Virus genome (UHGV): UHGV-0036148
Origin: a virus
Length of the DNA: 55,727 nucleotides
Reading direction: 5' to 3' (one strand)
Below the pieces are notes generated by a model, which was not told where the DNA came from, searched no databases, and worked only from the letters and a program-made list of their open reading frames with translations. Shown piece after piece: positions 7,296 through 52,438 of this stretch (position 1 is its first letter; each line of letters opens with the position of its first letter). Position numbers and translations under genes: made by a program.

Positions 7296-7388
7296 TCACC
7301 TCATATGGTATTCAATAAACCACCTGATAAACAGGCATAAGGCAATAAAACCCCAGCAACAGCACATATAAAACAATGTGTCGTCCAT
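7296..7388 (-). CDS. mini membrane peptide (30 aa)
   Basis: MDDTLFYMCCCWGFIALCLFIRWFIEYHMR; GAGG SD; stop overlaps SD of next gene. Confidence 0.35.
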   Translation of the reverse strand: MDDTLFYMCCCWGFIALCLFIRWFIEYHMR

Positions 7389-8856: not shown

Positions 8857-9119
8857 ACGCCGAACATCCCATTCAGTCCGGCGAACAATTTCCGCCAGTG
8901 GTTTTCAGCATAAGCCCGGAACGGCTTAACGCGAACATTGCGGGCCTTCAGTTCAATCTTGTCGAAGAAACGCGGCTCTATAATTGTTCCGTCCAGATAT
9001 TTAACCAGGATCGGACGCTCAAGATCGTCATGTGTCTTGTTCAGCACAACCAGACCAGGGTCTTTACGGTATTCCGGGAGCACGACCAGATCACCCGTTT
9101 TGATATTCATGAATGGCAT
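8847..9119 (-). CDS. hypothetical protein (90 aa)
   Basis: ATG at 9119 overlapping stop of upstream mini-ORF. Confidence 0.4.
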   Translation of the reverse strand: MPFMNIKTGDLVVLPEYRKDPGLVVLNKTHDDLERPILVKYLDGTIIEPRFFDKIELKARNVRVKPFRAYAENHWRKLFAGLNGMFGVWL

Positions 9120-9235
9120 CACATCACCCCGCCGATATAGCTAATAATTGCCGCAGCCGCGCCAGCCATTACCACCATGAAGACGAAAGCGACCACACAG
9201 AAAACGGCCTTGACAGTATTTTTGTCTACTCGCAT
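9119..9235 (-). CDS. mini membrane peptide (38 aa)
   Basis: MRVDKNTVKAVFCVVAFVFMVVMAGAAAAIISYIGGVM; GAGGT SD; TGATG overlap with next gene. Confidence 0.35.
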   Translation of the reverse strand: MRVDKNTVKAVFCVVAFVFMVVMAGAAAAIISYIGGVM

Positions 9236-34261: not shown

Positions 34262-34378
34262 ATGAAAATAGAAGTTTTGGCGCTAATAATAATGGGATTG
34301 ATAGTATTTGGCGTTCATGCTGTAGATCTGGACTGGAAAACGATAGCGGAAAATATAGCATTAATGGAAATGGAATAA
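34262..34378 (+). CDS. mini membrane/secreted peptide (38 aa)
   Basis: MKIEVLALIIMGLIVFGVHA... hydrophobic N-terminus; GGTGA SD. Confidence 0.3.
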   Translation: MKIEVLALIIMGLIVFGVHAVDLDWKTIAENIALMEME

Positions 34379-49152: not shown

Positions 49153-49638
49153 TCACACCTCATCTTCTACTTCCTGGACGATGCGGGCGATTTCTTCTTT
49201 CGTGACTTCTACCTGTACGGGCGCTTCTTCCCTGTTGCCTACGATTTCCTGCGTAACGCGTTCGCCATACTTACGCGGTTGCAGTTTTGCTAACAGCCAT
49301 TTACGAGTCTCAATCATCAAATGGTGTCTGTTCAGTTCTTCCTTTTTGATGTTCTCTGGCGCGTCAGCAAGATCGATAATCTCATCAGCTAACACCTCGA
49401 AGCCGATCTCCTTCGCGCGTATGTACATGTCCGAAAATTCTGGCACGTCACGGAACCACTTAAGGATTGTTGAGCGTGCAGGCATACCAGGCATCTTCGA
49501 AATTTTGTTAATGCTTTCGCCGTCCGCCACCAGTTCACAAATCTCTAATGCCTTTTCTTCGGTATAACCATGCGGACGGCCCGTCTTTTTGGCTGCTGGC
49601 TTTTTGTCTTCAGCCTTTGCCTTTTTCGTGCGGGCCAT
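49153..49638 (-). CDS. terminase small subunit
   Basis: basic N-terminus plus HTH-like segment; immediately upstream of TerL; AGAGGTGA SD. Confidence 0.6.
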   Translation of the reverse strand: MARTKKAKAEDKKPAAKKTGRPHGYTEEKALEICELVADGESINKISKMPGMPARSTILKWFRDVPEFSDMYIRAKEIGFEVLADEIIDLADAPENIKKEELNRHHLMIETRKWLLAKLQPRKYGERVTQEIVGNREEAPVQVEVTKEEIARIVQEVEDEV

Positions 49639-49649
49639 AATGTCACCTC

Positions 49650-49736
49650 TTAAAACCATTTACATAGAATATATAAGCACGCAATTAATGTTGCGCAGTA
49701 CGTTAATACTTCCAGCCAGTCGAATAGCTCTTTCAT
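49650..49736 (-). CDS. mini membrane peptide 9 of array (28 aa)
   Basis: MKELFDWLEVLTYCATLIACLYILCKWF; AGGTGA SD; stop overlaps terS SD. Confidence 0.4.
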   Translation of the reverse strand: MKELFDWLEVLTYCATLIACLYILCKWF

Positions 49737-49743
49737 TGTTCAC

Positions 49744-49812
49744 CTACTGAGTTAGTGCAGCCATAGTCAGAGAAATAGCGACAAACAGGAAGAAGAAATC
49801 AAGCCATTTCAT
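49744..49812 (-). CDS. mini membrane peptide 8 of array (22 aa)
   Basis: MKWLDFFFLFVAISLTMAALTQ; AGGAG SD. Confidence 0.4.
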   Translation of the reverse strand: MKWLDFFFLFVAISLTMAALTQ

Positions 49813-49829
49813 TTTTGAACTCCTGCGAT

Positions 49830-49901
49830 TCAGTTAACACTTAAAAGCACCGCAATAATGACAATCACTATAATCATGCAAAAGAAATCTGCTTCCCTCA
49901 T
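49830..49901 (-). CDS. mini membrane peptide 7 of array (23 aa)
   Basis: MREADFFCMIIVIVIIAVLLSVN; ATGA overlap with upstream stop. Confidence 0.4.
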   Translation of the reverse strand: MREADFFCMIIVIVIIAVLLSVN

Positions 49902-49978
49902 TTCCTGAACCCTCGATAAAAGTCAACAGCAACGACCACAACTACAGCCACCAATAACAGCATTTCATATGCGTTCAT
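49898..49978 (-). CDS. mini membrane peptide 6 of array (26 aa)
   Basis: MNAYEMLLLVAVVVVVAVDFYRGFRK; GGGAG SD. Confidence 0.4.
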   Translation of the reverse strand: MNAYEMLLLVAVVVVVAVDFYRGFRK

Positions 49979-50072
49979 CGACACTCCCTATAACCAGCCC
50001 AATAATAAGGATGATGGCGACAACGCCCAGCATCATGCCGAACATGATCGCCAGTAATTCGAATATATCCAT
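49965..50072 (-). CDS. mini membrane peptide 5 of array (35 aa)
   Basis: MDIFELLAIMFGMMLGVVAIILIIGLVIGSVDERI; AGGTGA SD. Confidence 0.4.
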   Translation of the reverse strand: MDIFELLAIMFGMMLGVVAIILIIGLVIGSVDERI

Positions 50073-50080
50073 GCCGTCAC

Positions 50081-50155
50081 CTATACGACATTCTTCCACC
50101 AGAAATAGATAATGACGGCGACCACTGACCACCAGATGAGATCGTAAACACTCAT
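50081..50155 (-). CDS. mini membrane peptide 4 of array (24 aa)
   Basis: MSVYDLIWWSVVAVIIYFWWKNVV; GAGG SD. Confidence 0.4.
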   Translation of the reverse strand: MSVYDLIWWSVVAVIIYFWWKNVV

Positions 50156-50164
50156 GCGGATGCC

Positions 50165-50239
50165 TCAGCTTTCAATGAATATCATGATCGCCAGCCATAC
50201 AGCGAAGCAGGCGGAAAGGATGATGAGCGGGTCAATCAT
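50165..50239 (-). CDS. mini membrane peptide 3 of array (24 aa)
   Basis: MIDPLIILSACFAVWLAIMIFIES; GGGGTGG SD. Confidence 0.4.
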   Translation of the reverse strand: MIDPLIILSACFAVWLAIMIFIES

Positions 50240-50252
50240 CTTGCCACCCCGT

Positions 50253-50348
50253 TTAGCATTTGCTCTTTGTGGCTATCAGCACAGCGATAACAAAACCCAC
50301 CAGGAATACAGACACGCCGATCAATCCGGCTATTTCGTAAGCGTTCAT
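50253..50348 (-). CDS. mini membrane peptide 2 of array (31 aa)
   Basis: MNAYEIAGLIGVSVFLVGFVIAVLIATKSKC; shares MNAYE start with peptide 6. Confidence 0.4.
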   Translation of the reverse strand: MNAYEIAGLIGVSVFLVGFVIAVLIATKSKC

Positions 50349-50352
50349 ATAG

Positions 50353-50421
50353 TTAATCCCATAACAGAAAGACTACAGCTATAACCATTCCGATGAATAA
50401 ACCACACAGAAAAGTGAGCAT
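50353..50421 (-). CDS. mini membrane peptide 1 of array (22 aa)
   Basis: MLTFLCGLFIGMVIAVVFLLWD; GGGGG SD; ATG 2 nt after stop of HExxH gene. Confidence 0.4.
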   Translation of the reverse strand: MLTFLCGLFIGMVIAVVFLLWD

Positions 50422-50423
50422 AA

Positions 50424-51008
50424 TTACCCCCGTTTAAAGCTCATCACACGCGGTACAAGCGCCTCTTTTGTTTTAGGCTTACGTTTGCCTTTCTTAGCTG
50501 GTTTTTTCTCTTCTTTCGGCTCCTCTGCCTGTTCAACTGCCTGTTCTGCTGCATCAGTCGCCTTCTCTGCCTGTTCCAGTGCCTTCTCTACGACTTCGGC
50601 GGCCTGCATAGCTGCCAACTGTGCTTCGTTAGATTCAGCAAGGATCGGGAAGAATGCGTCAAAGATGCGGCCCACCATGTAAGCATAAGTCTCGTTCGCT
50701 GGATGGCTTGGATCAGTGGTCGCTACGACGCCCACATCGCTCAGTACGTGGAATGTAGTGTGTGCGCATTCATGGACCAGAGTACCAAGCTCATTATCGA
50801 ATACTGCGATCACGTAGAAGTTACCGCCTTTCTCGCCAGTGCAAGTAAGTGTTAAACCTCCTGCCAGTTCAAAATCAGGTTCGATTGGAATGCCTGCCTT
50901 TTCGCAAAACTCGTAAAACATGTCGCGAGTAGGGCAGAAGAAAACTGTTGTATGCTCAAAGAGCGGGACTTTGAATTGAGGCAATTTAATGCCTTTAGCC
51001 TTAGCCAT
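50424..51008 (-). CDS. HExxH motif protein (putative zinc metallopeptidase-like) with Ala/Glu/Lys-rich basic tail
   Basis: LVHECAHTTFH motif; AGGAG SD; low-complexity C-terminus. Confidence 0.45.
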   Translation of the reverse strand: MAKAKGIKLPQFKVPLFEHTTVFFCPTRDMFYEFCEKAGIPIEPDFELAGGLTLTCTGEKGGNFYVIAVFDNELGTLVHECAHTTFHVLSDVGVVATTDPSHPANETYAYMVGRIFDAFFPILAESNEAQLAAMQAAEVVEKALEQAEKATDAAEQAVEQAEEPKEEKKPAKKGKRKPKTKEALVPRVMSFKRG

Positions 51009-51287: not shown

Positions 51288-51758
51288 TTATTTTTTGCGT
51301 AAGCACTGCGTTTTGATATAGCTCTGAAGTCCGGCGATCTTCGCGTCTTTCTCTTTTAGTTGTTCTCTGAGGGATAGATAAGCCGATTCAGCGTCTGGAG
51401 TGAGTCTACAGGTGGCTCCATCAATGCGGCTGGCGGTTCCGGTATTGTCGAGCAATCGCACTGGCTCGGCGTTGACGTGCAACCGGATAGCACCGCTATC
51501 AATGCCAGCACGCAGATCGGCAATGTCAGATCTGATAGCTTTAATCTCATCGTGATACCTCTTATCAAGTTTTGACAGTTCGGCGTTTCGCTCCTTCATC
51601 TGCTGAATAGTGTTACTTGCTGTTTTTAGTGCGCCTTTCGTCACCGTGACTTCTTCCTGCAACCTTGCCGTTTCACCCTGGTAATAACACGTTACGGCTG
51701 TAAGGCTGGCAATAATGCAAACAACAACGGCGATGATTAACGTCTTCACCTTGTCCAT
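51288..51758 (-). CDS. i-spanin (Rz-like)
   Basis: N-terminal TM helix then coiled-coil; directly downstream of endolysin. Confidence 0.65.
51356..51550 (-). CDS. o-spanin (Rz1-like) embedded in Rz in alternate frame
   Basis: [24 protein letters not shown] lipobox, Pro-rich mature part; fully nested in Rz. Confidence 0.55.
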   Translation of the reverse strand: MRLKLSDLTLPICVLALIAVLSGCTSTPSQCDCSTIPEPPAALMEPPVDSLQTLNRLIYPSENN

Positions 51759-52237
51759 TTCTCACCCCATTCGCAAACGGCATATTCAACCTCGCGGCGG
51801 TTTACCAGGCCTTGCCACTTCTTACCGCCAGCGTATACCCAGCGTTTAAGCTGTGCGCACGCTTCTGATTTCTTGCCGTCATTGAGTAGTTTTAATAAGG
51901 TTGATGTTTTAAAGTTGGTTGTGCCTACGTTATAGGCGAATGAATAAAGTGCTGCGCGGGTAAAATCTGATATTTCGACTTTAATATAGGGATCGATCGC
52001 TTTTGCGGTCTTGTGTAGATCTTTATTTAACAAAGTATCGCATTCTGATTGCGTGTAAGTCTTGCCAAGCATGATGTCTTTTCCGGTGTGACCGTGGCAA
52101 ACAGTCCACACACCAACAACATCACGATAAGGATTGTAATCAACTCCCTCTAATGGCTTAATCATCACCGCCGCAATAGCGATCGCCCCACCAGCCGCCG
52201 CCGCAACAATCTTGTTTTTCAGCGATTGGCTAATCAT
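51746..52237 (-). CDS. SAR endolysin (T4-lysozyme-like muramidase)
   Basis: Gly/Ala-rich N-terminal SAR segment [18 protein letters not shown]; E...D...T catalytic spacing in [18 protein letters not shown]. Confidence 0.85.
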
Positions 52238-52438
52238 TTACTTATTCCCCATTCGCGCGTCGTGTTCCTCTTGCGCTCGCTTGTTCTCCTGTGATTTGAA
52301 GTAATAGTTAACGGCAAATGTGCCTACGGTTGATAAGATACCCACAAAGACGGCAATATCATTGATGGTTATCGCGCCGAAAAAAGCAGTTACGGCCCCA
52401 GTCACATACGCGCACGCCTCCCGTATTCTGTCTAACAT
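52238..52438 (-). CDS. holin (pinholin-like, two TM segments)
   Basis: 66 aa, two hydrophobic segments, charged C-terminus, immediately upstream of SAR endolysin. Confidence 0.65.
   Translation of the reverse strand: MLDRIREACAYVTGAVTAFFGAITINDIAVFVGILSTVGTFAVNYYFKSQENKRAQEEHDARMGNK

Follow-up and report, generated by a model that had tools for sequence, protein, structure and literature searches.

Multi-gene sets of holin-like membrane proteins have been described in the lysis cassettes of actinobacteriophages, such as those of Gordonia and the mycobacteriophages (PMC9671378, PMC13148394), and were called unprecedented by their authors and undescribed for phages of Gram-negative hosts (PMC9671378). 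Small membrane proteins are known to bind larger membrane partners or to form pores, and some of them, including IbsC, DinQ, and TisB, depolarise the membrane (review PMC12648545), as does the 27-aa YohP, which is inserted by the signal recognition particle (PMC7549839; bioRxiv 10.1101/2025.05.06.652344). Full-text literature searches returned no description of tandem arrays of tiny hydrophobic phage genes. Such an array is found in the viral genome UHGV-0036148, a stretch of 55,727 nt that is referred to below as the window: nine consecutive mini open reading frames (mini-ORFs) fill the interval between hex, a gene for a protein with an HExxH motif, and terS, which encodes the small terminase. 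The explanation preferred here, to which a probability of roughly 0.4 is given as a whole, is that the array is a lineage-specific cluster of real mini-genes with a role in conflict.

The mini-ORFs and their products

In a listing of ORFs of at least 20 aa, the hex-terS interval is occupied by nine frames of 22-35 aa that start with ATG and run from 50421 to 49650 on the minus strand, exactly where the initial annotation had placed them in the sequence. Their products represent families A, B, C, D, E, F, G, H, and M, in this order (Table 1). The junctions described in the initial annotation are both present, as the stop codon of hex and the ATG of ORF1 form TAATTATG and ORF6 and ORF7 overlap at ATGA. 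ORF5 and ORF6 share 14 nt, the remaining gaps measure 4-17 nt, and the family M frame ends 11 nt upstream of terS. That each ORF would have its own Shine-Dalgarno (SD) sequence holds well for eight of the nine starts, where the anti-SD duplex energy lies between -5.6 and -10.0 kcal/mol, and poorly for ORF2, which is weak at -4.0 kcal/mol. No second cluster of this kind occurs within the 55.7-kb window.

Relatives of the array were collected from 54 loci, namely the window itself, seven GenBank phages, and 46 IMG/VR contigs found via terS. The ratio of nonsynonymous to synonymous polymorphism (pN/pS) was calculated from Nei-Gojobori (NG86) counts, family by family, for every pair of unique sequences. 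Its value in the proposed frame is 0.23 (pN 0.063, pS 0.279), with individual families ranging from 0.08 to 0.38. The other two sense frames give 0.99 and 1.38 and the antisense frames 0.82, 0.35, and 1.84, the value of 0.35 arising because the wobble position of that frame coincides with the sense wobble. Variable sites are distributed over codon positions 1, 2, and 3 as 136, 88, and 245. Scored by the same script, the neighbouring genes have ratios of 0.07 (holin), 0.10 (endolysin), 0.38 (Rz, within which another gene is embedded), 0.06-0.08 (hex), and 0.11 (terS), so that the constraint on the mini-ORFs is about as strong as that on the adjacent accepted genes. Families M (0.08), D2 (0.12), H (0.13), and E (0.14) have the lowest ratios, and the pS of family M indicates that it is the peptide, rather than a site in the DNA, that is constrained.

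The signals for translation recur in the relatives. Over all arrays, the mean SD pairing energy is -6.5 kcal/mol at the starts, compared with -2.4 kcal/mol at random positions, and the 436 junctions have a median gap of 8 nt, with 96% of them at or below 20 nt and 31% overlapping (a gap of -4 in 85 cases and of -8 in 39). The region does not behave as a structured untranslated RNA, the outcome that the initial annotation had named as a refutation: Rfam yields no match to the array region at E values up to 1, and RNA folding is not in excess of that of shuffled sequences (z = +0.93). No promoter-like site was found on the minus strand from 52100 to terS, the interior of the block included, and the only two hairpin/T-run matches are weak and lie inside ORFs 4 and 9. 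This lack of an internal promoter or a convincing terminator, together with orientation and spacing, points to one late polycistronic message that the array shares with terS and terL. Thus, the mini-ORFs are almost certainly protein-coding.

Two other frames run through the same DNA. The ORF on the plus strand that the initial annotation had dismissed as spurious is a 76-aa frame (50154-50384) that runs antisense to the array and is without support. On the minus strand, an ORF at 49660-49743 (MNNERAIRLAGSINVLRNINCVLIYSM) overlaps family M in another frame; its product is 27-40 aa long and not hydrophobic, and it recurs in relatives among the ORFs marked '?' in loci L018, L046, L047, and L049-L051. 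With a pN/pS of ~1 or higher in its frame, it is unlikely to be a gene. This overlapping frame is nevertheless chosen over the true M frame in some GenBank annotations and by some gene callers.

Table 1. Mini-ORFs of the array and neighbouring genes in the window. dG17 and SD (anti-SD duplex energy) are in kcal/mol; loci are counted out of 54; TM, transmembrane.
Feature	Coordinates	Strand	Peptide	Length (aa)	dG17	SD	Loci	pN/pS	Remarks
Mini-ORF 1, family A	50353..50421	-	MLTFLCGLFIGMVIAVVFLLWD	22	-3.9	-10.0	27/54	0.38	GxxxG motif (GLFIG)
Mini-ORF 2, family B	50253..50348	-	MNAYEIAGLIGVSVFLVGFVIAVLIATKSKC	31	-3.2	-4.0	46/54	0.26	weak SD
Mini-ORF 3, family C	50165..50239	-	MIDPLIILSACFAVWLAIMIFIES	24	-3.8	-9.5	51/54	0.29	
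Mini-ORF 4, family D	50081..50155	-	MSVYDLIWWSVVAVIIYFWWKNVV	24	+2.8	-5.6	34/54	0.29	Trp-rich; apolar core of 15 residues; marginal TM helix
Mini-ORF 5, family E	49965..50072	-	MDIFELLAIMFGMMLGVVAIILIIGLVIGSVDERI	35	-3.6	-6.7	25/54	0.14	start after TAGGTGA stop/SD junction; two GxxxG motifs
Mini-ORF 6, family F	49898..49978	-	MNAYEMLLLVAVVVVVAVDFYRGFRK	26	+1.8	-8.5	53/54	0.27	apolar run of 13 residues; marginal TM helix
Mini-ORF 7, family G	49830..49901	-	MREADFFCMIIVIVIIAVLLSVN	23	-5.3	-6.4	19/54	0.21	
Mini-ORF 8, family H	49744..49812	-	MKWLDFFFLFVAISLTMAALTQ	22	+0.6	-6.9	50/54	0.13	marginal TM helix
Mini-ORF 9, family M	49650..49736	-	MKELFDWLEVLTYCATLIACLYILCKWF	28	+0.8	-7.7	54/54	0.08	marginal TM helix; pS 0.27
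Holin, class II	52238-52438	-							matches Phage_holin_2_3 and HP1/class II families; weakly P21 S family
Endolysin	51746-52237	-							lysozyme domain from residue 29, after Gly/Ala-rich hydrophobic N-terminus
ORF embedded in Rz	51356-51568	-							lipobox LSGC; consistent with Rz1-type outer spanin
hex, HExxH protein	50424..51008	-		194					stop 2 nt before ORF1; phrog_1365 (function unknown)
terS, Sf6-type small terminase	49153..49638	-							Pfam Sf6_terminase, E 1.7e-36; directly downstream of array

The membrane character of the peptides was scored as the Hessa dG over a 17-residue window (dG17). Families A, B, C, E, and G lie below -3 kcal/mol and are clear membrane helices. Families D, F, H, and M are marginal, with values of +0.6 to +2.8 kcal/mol and uncharged cores of 13-16 residues, and it is plausible that they also span the membrane. 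The initial annotation, which had predicted a single TM helix for each peptide, was therefore right for five of the nine and optimistic for the other four. Among the window's other small ATG ORFs, 235 in number, just 3.4% reach a dG17 below 0, and 2000 shuffled versions of the region contained a mean of 0.09 such hydrophobic ORFs and a maximum of 2, compared with the 5 observed.

When all arrays are taken together, the peptides sort by sequence motif into ~23 families, nearly all of which follow a common design: a Met, one or two acidic residues at positions 2-6, a stretch of 13-27 residues without charge, and a tail of 0-5 residues, which agrees with the short hydrophobic peptides with acidic N-termini that had been noted at the outset. 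In the nine peptides of the window, the apolar stretch spans 13-26 residues. A net negative N flank is found in 18 of 23 families and a positive C flank in 11, while the C-terminal tails are net neutral or negative in 12; a basic 11-residue tail is found only in family L, which is not present in the window. From these flank charges and the positive-inside rule, an N-out/C-in orientation is predicted for about half of the families, among them D, F, M, and B, the last with its acidic N flank and basic C tail, and the rest are ambiguous. Family M is the least membrane-like, having an amphipathic acidic N-half followed by a core of 15-16 residues. Judged by their sequences, the peptides are likely to be located in the membrane.

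Outside the long ORFs, the window also contains three isolated ORFs of 30-38 aa that combine a hydrophobic helix with a good SD, at 34262-34378 (+), on the strand opposite to the tail genes, at 9119-9235 (-), and at 7296-7388 (-). Going by the same sequence features, these could be further unannotated micro-membrane proteins.

Content, evolution, and distribution of the array

With two extra contigs found via divergent hex proteins (L097 and L098), the comparison covers 56 genomes, and the order of hex, mini-ORFs, and terS is the same in 56 of 56. Conservation of the reading frames in related genomes had been set beforehand as a check, and both frames and amino acids are kept in all of them. 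The number of mini-ORFs per array ranges from 3 to 13 among the 54 loci, with a median of 9, and is 2 and 7 in the two extra contigs; mEp021 has five. The order of the families is strictly collinear, with no inversion in any locus. From first to last, the slots are A/A2/A3/A4/O, B, N and/or D2 (optional), C, D/D3, P (optional), E, F, G, H, I/I2, J, K, L, and, always at the end, M/M2. Within this fixed order, 41 distinct architectures are found among the 54 loci. The only universal member is M, including its allele M2 and one E3K variant, which is present in all 54 loci as well as in L097 and L098; F, C, H, and B are near-universal (Table 1) and the remainder facultative. The holin, endolysin, hex, and terS proteins are mostly 80-100% identical across the loci. 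With these conserved flanks and its varying content, the array is a hot spot for changes in the set of genes. Peptides C and M of a phage whose hex is just 60% identical are the same as the common variants.

At a single locus, L037 (IMGVR_UViG_3300045988_063525), B and C are fused in frame into one 60-aa ORF with two helices (MDDYIIAGLIG...KRWLEGKMIDPLVILS...). This fusion may hint that neighbours tolerate or prefer a side-by-side placement in the membrane.

Consensus sequences of the families were compared by local alignment, each pair against 300 shuffles, and are alike well beyond composition. The likeness extends across different slots, as in G and K (z 10.4), F and D2 (10.2), G and H (6.6), and H and K (6.4), which identifies these families as true paralogues, and it also joins alternatives of the same slot, such as M and M2 (10.8), I and I2 (9.1), D and D3 (8.9), and A and A4 (5.7). 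The slot of family A is allelic with A2, A3, A4, and O, and family D is paralogous or allelic also to D2. The suggestion of a duplication origin, which the initial annotation had drawn from the shared MNAYE start of peptides 2 and 6, is thus partly borne out, with better support from pairs other than this one; the shared start is true in the window, but most relatives start peptide 2 with MDAY or MDDY.

Gain and loss affect whole genes, with boundaries that coincide exactly with the stop/SD/ATG junctions. The 3' end of the upstream gene and its SD are kept whatever gene follows, and the C-D and C-F junctions, for example, are the same up to the ATG. A TAGGTGA-N3-5-ATG box, in which the stop codon lies inside the next SD, recurs at the D-E, D-F, D-P, P-E, H-I, H-I2, and H-M junctions, and an identical 5' coding start, ATGAAYnnnTAC, is shared by D and F. 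From the recurrent junction boxes and the similar 5' ends of paralogues, we infer that unequal homologous recombination is at work.

In the array region, the window is 84-88% identical in nucleotide sequence to seven GenBank phages, mEp021, mEp010, mEp013, mEp044, mEp515, mEp554, and MagusPhagus, and by sequence its phage is an mEp021-like (mEpimmI) non-lambdoid temperate coliphage. The mEpimmI phages, of which 48 genomes have been described and for which a new family has been proposed, come from human faeces and are temperate siphoviruses of E. coli that depend on Nus but are not lambdoid; they are reported to be as common as lambdoid phages in human gut samples (PMC11893012). The label 'lambdoid' in the initial annotation was therefore wrong. 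The sole published description of the mEpimmI group makes no mention of transmembrane or small ORFs at the position of the array (PMC11893012).

Searches beyond this group recovered little. With the peptides as queries, tblastn against 50,697 phage records returned only the seven mEp-type relatives, and a degenerate DNA pattern of family M run against IMG/VR found the same contigs and one more fragment. The same script detected no such ORFs upstream of the terminase in 25 IMG/VR loci whose TerL is 56-70% identical, and no array stands beside the hex homologues of P22-like phages (ST64T, HK620). The array appears to be lineage-specific, confined to the mEp021-like (mEpimmI) temperate coliphages only. 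As prophages, these bring it into 32 of 5426 complete RefSeq E. coli genomes.

None of the nine peptides has a significant match in Pfam, PHROGs, or NCBIfam, including the holin and type I toxin families; the best holin score is that of ORF4 to Holin_SPP1 (E 0.59, not significant). The PADLOC models gave no match for hex or for the five peptides tested. On this sequence evidence, the peptides constitute new families. When a set of 5.8 billion proteins was queried with the concatenated peptides, only three ENA metagenome proteins were returned, P0001-P0003 (158-166 aa), which string together several mini-ORFs and out-of-frame stretches. They were rejected as real proteins, being miscalls made with an alternative code, under which TGA, a stop codon in the array, was translated as Trp.

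Existing annotations of the array are sparse. In the E. coli prophages listed, PGAP places nothing or one hypothetical protein under the array match, the gene caller used for the metagenomes missed all seven ORFs of L098 and placed an ORF in the wrong frame in L097, and PHANOTATE-annotated GenBank phage records list some mini-ORFs as hypothetical proteins, partly with wrong extents.

Neighbouring genes and possible roles

On the minus strand, the gene order is holin, endolysin, Rz, a non-coding stretch of ~280 nt, hex, the array, terS, TerL, and portal. The placement of the array next to packaging and lysis genes, as initially annotated, is accurate for terS, which adjoins it and whose ATG at 49638 is preceded by the SD AGAGGTGA; the lysis cassette is set off by the non-coding stretch, in which mEp021 has a predicted terminator, and by the 585-nt HExxH gene. 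The N-terminus of the endolysin looks like a signal-anchor-release (SAR) sequence. Gly/Ala-rich hydrophobic N-termini are typical of SAR endolysins, which are released by depolarisation in pinholin/SAR systems. In hex, residues H79, E80, and H83 and the stretch N105-E106-T107-Y108 are invariant, P22-like homologues included, and the protein is a putative conserved small zinc metallopeptidase. Beyond its core follow a long helix of ~60 residues and a disordered tail rich in Lys and Arg, which are confined to mEp-type phages, and a structural neighbour search with its AF2 model (pLDDT 78.5) gave no significant match. P22-like phages place the 120-aa hex core elsewhere, ST64T between lysis and terS and HK620 in the immI region. 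In the relatives, HNH endonuclease genes are found at three places within the otherwise conserved lysis-packaging block, between hex and the array in mEp013 (L006 2517-3002), between terS and terL in L097 (4250-4753), and between endolysin and Rz in L098 (1752-2273), and look like mobile homing-type elements visiting this region.

As a role for the peptides, conflict at the inner membrane, either between phage and host or between phages, is tentatively put forward. The mini-ORFs would be read along with the packaging genes from one polycistronic message, ribosomes being handed over from one to the next, and late in infection the peptides would enter the inner membrane of the host, in the N-out/C-in orientation where an acidic N flank is combined with a basic C tail. 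Once there, they may act through helix-helix contacts with larger membrane proteins or self-assemble and perturb the membrane; the low pN/pS of M, D2, H, and E suggests specific contacts and not mere hydrophobicity. The set as a whole would form a changeable repertoire of accessory factors, which might, for instance, block defence effectors or host functions embedded in the membrane. A universal M and near-universal F, C, H, and B, with other members that vary between near-identical flanks and alternate as alleles of the same slot, fit such a conflict accessory set, and the reading is favoured by the dispensability of individual members and their rapid turnover. By the same sequence comparisons, the array is presumably not part of the core lysis or packaging machinery.

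Several points weigh against this role. Translation, insertion, and any phenotype of the peptides are deduced from sequence, four of the nine peptides are marginal as TM segments, and the overall pN/pS, being averaged over non-independent pairs, is a rough descriptive ratio and not a phylogenetic test. With no match in Pfam, PHROGs, NCBIfam, or PADLOC, nothing ties the peptides to known conflict systems. Being without a promoter of its own, the array is probably silent in lysogens, which argues against an exclusion or moron function expressed from the prophage. In addition, the fixed order and the near-universal presence of M, F, C, and H could fit a cooperative or structural role.

The conflict reading has a more elaborate and doubtful form, in which the array is a recombining rack of cassettes, each micro-TM protein being tuned to bind a target of its own in the inner membrane, whether this belongs to the host or to a rival element. 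Such targets might include membrane-embedded abortive-infection effectors, DNA-entry channels, and the phage's own pinholin, and the repertoire would be changed by unequal recombination at the stop/SD/ATG junctions.

The main rival to conflict, itself unlikely, is modulation of lysis timing. Here the peptides would build up in the inner membrane late in infection and adjust the timing of holin and SAR-type endolysin, either by binding the class II holin or by a partial dissipation of the proton-motive force, and the number of genes, altered by unequal recombination, would serve as an evolutionary rheostat for lysis time. The array does lie ~0.9 kb downstream of the holin-endolysin-Rz/Rz1 cassette in the same direction of transcription, the holin is of class II type, the SAR-like N-terminus of the endolysin would make it responsive to depolarisation, and IbsC, DinQ, TisB, and YohP, which depolarise the membrane, are of similar size. 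However, the non-coding stretch of ~280 nt and hex lie between the cassette and the array, which is coupled to terS and not to the endolysin, and the peptides match no holin family and mostly lack the charged C-terminal domain typical of holins. The lysis proteins are almost invariant whereas the content of the array varies widely, so that no co-variation of the two is seen, and distinct families under separate purifying selection and in a fixed order are unlike a simple dosage rheostat.

It is improbable that the array supplies a core helper of packaging or assembly, with M, and perhaps F, C, and H, serving terS expression or a membrane-associated packaging or prohead step and the variable members being dispensable duplicates. 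This idea draws on M, which is present in 56 of 56 arrays, has the lowest pN/pS, ends just before terS, and is the least membrane-like member. Phages with a related Sf6-type terS/TerL (56-70% identity; Sf6, HK620), however, have no such ORF, the pS of M places the constraint on its peptide rather than on a DNA site, and no physical link of M to the terminase is apparent.

Two further readings are very improbable. In one, the peptides resemble type I toxins or addiction peptides held under antisense RNA, which would stabilise the prophage or kill the stressed cell. Size and hydrophobicity are like those of IbsC, ShoB, and DinQ, and antisense sigma-70-like matches are found inside the array at 49978-50006 (+) and 50085-50113 (+), scoring 10/12 and 9/12. 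The region contains 4 promoter-like matches compared with 5.9 in shuffled sequences, so these antisense hexamer pairs are probably a by-product of AT-rich coding sequence, although an antisense RNA may exist. There is no match to Hok, Ldr, Ibs, ShoB, TisB, DinQ, Fst, or other toxins in Pfam and NCBIfam, strong SDs and operon coupling without an own promoter are the opposite of silenced stand-alone toxin mRNAs, and up to 13 genes in a row are unlike such loci. In the other, the peptides are substrates or partners of the HExxH protein, which would process them or be anchored by them in a maturation-type cluster, such as those of ribosomally synthesised and post-translationally modified peptides (RiPPs). 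The constant position of hex directly upstream, with 2 nt before ORF1, and the invariance of HExxH and NETY across its homologues agree with this; yet the P22-like homologues (ST64T, HK620) stand alone without an array, an HNH gene separates hex from the array in mEp013, the peptides have no leader/core organisation, and no fold could be assigned to hex.

Hardly credible is the view that the peptides are irrelevant, whether as chance ORFs of T-rich DNA, as translation for anti-polarity or terS coupling, or as a by-product of an RNA role, for although the coding strand is T-rich, its GC content is below that of the flanks, and hydrophobic ORFs arise readily in such sequence (PMC11188072), the frame-specific purifying selection, third-position polymorphism, and frames intact in 56 genomes speak against it, and the structured-RNA and chance-ORF readings were rejected on the Rfam search, the folding z, and the shuffle counts (0.09 such ORFs against 5).

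The array compared with known systems

The locus is an extreme case of the under-annotation of small membrane proteins, with up to 13 consecutive genes of 20-47 codons that are mostly missed by gene callers. Since relatives differ by whole mini-genes between near-identical flanks, it offers a compact natural experiment on the roles of micro-proteins, and it lets questions be asked about the birth, divergence, and loss of tandem micro-gene families. If the peptides indeed target host membrane proteins or defence effectors, very small and specific binders of membrane proteins could be drawn from it. Its anatomy is striking and experimentally tractable, and it is restricted to one phage lineage.

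Tandem mini-ORFs of comparable length are known from staphylococcal PSM-alpha 1-4 and from multi-peptide leaderless bacteriocins such as aureocin A70, in which three or four consecutive mini-ORFs of 20-35 codons with their own SDs lie on one transcript. The products of PSM-alpha and of the leaderless bacteriocins are amphipathic and usually cationic, are exported by ABC transporters encoded by nearby genes, and act outside the cell. In contrast, the array peptides are all apolar and begin with an acidic N-terminus, and genes for export or immunity do not accompany them. Dispensable and variable genes between conserved late modules are known also from the phage morons and accessory genes of the lysis-to-packaging interval, such as lambda bor and the gene for the HK97 gp15 exclusion protein, and some small inner-membrane proteins of the moron type block DNA entry by other phages. 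Morons differ in having their own promoter and terminator and in being expressed from the prophage, whereas the scan for promoters and hairpins revealed no such signals in the array.

The type I toxins (IbsA-E, ShoB, DinQ, TisB, Hok/Ldr) are, like the array peptides, very small and very hydrophobic, and some exist in repeated chromosomal copies; they differ in having an antisense or sRNA antitoxin and silenced translation, where the array has strong SDs and operon coupling. As for holins, the peptides show neither a family match, nor a position in the lysis cassette, nor a charged C-terminal domain. Closer in design are micro-membrane proteins such as YohP, AcrZ, MgtS, KdpF, and CydX (PMC12648545), which also have fewer than 50 aa and a single hydrophobic helix and are also overlooked by annotation. 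By the size that defines small membrane regulators (<50 aa, a single TM helix), the nine peptides belong with them, five clearly and four marginally, and by analogy these bacterial proteins are plausible models for the action of the array peptides. They are, however, encoded by single chromosomal genes with their own regulation, and share with the array no sequence similarity, tandem arrangement, or phage late-operon context.

The multi-gene sets of actinobacteriophages have in common with the array adjacent genes for small membrane proteins in the late region, one-at-a-time gain and loss, and variable content. They comprise at most four genes, whose products have 1-4 TM helices and usually more than 60 aa, are situated beside the endolysin gene, and are described as not duplicated, whereas the array comprises 2-13 genes of 20-47 codons, each with one short helix, partly paralogous and in fixed order, in the hex-terS interval of phages of a Gram-negative host. 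The likeness of the array to micro-membrane regulators and type I toxins is one of size and chemistry, and does not extend to sequence, regulation, or organisation. The locus is best regarded as a set of small phage membrane proteins in an unusually large, recombining tandem array.

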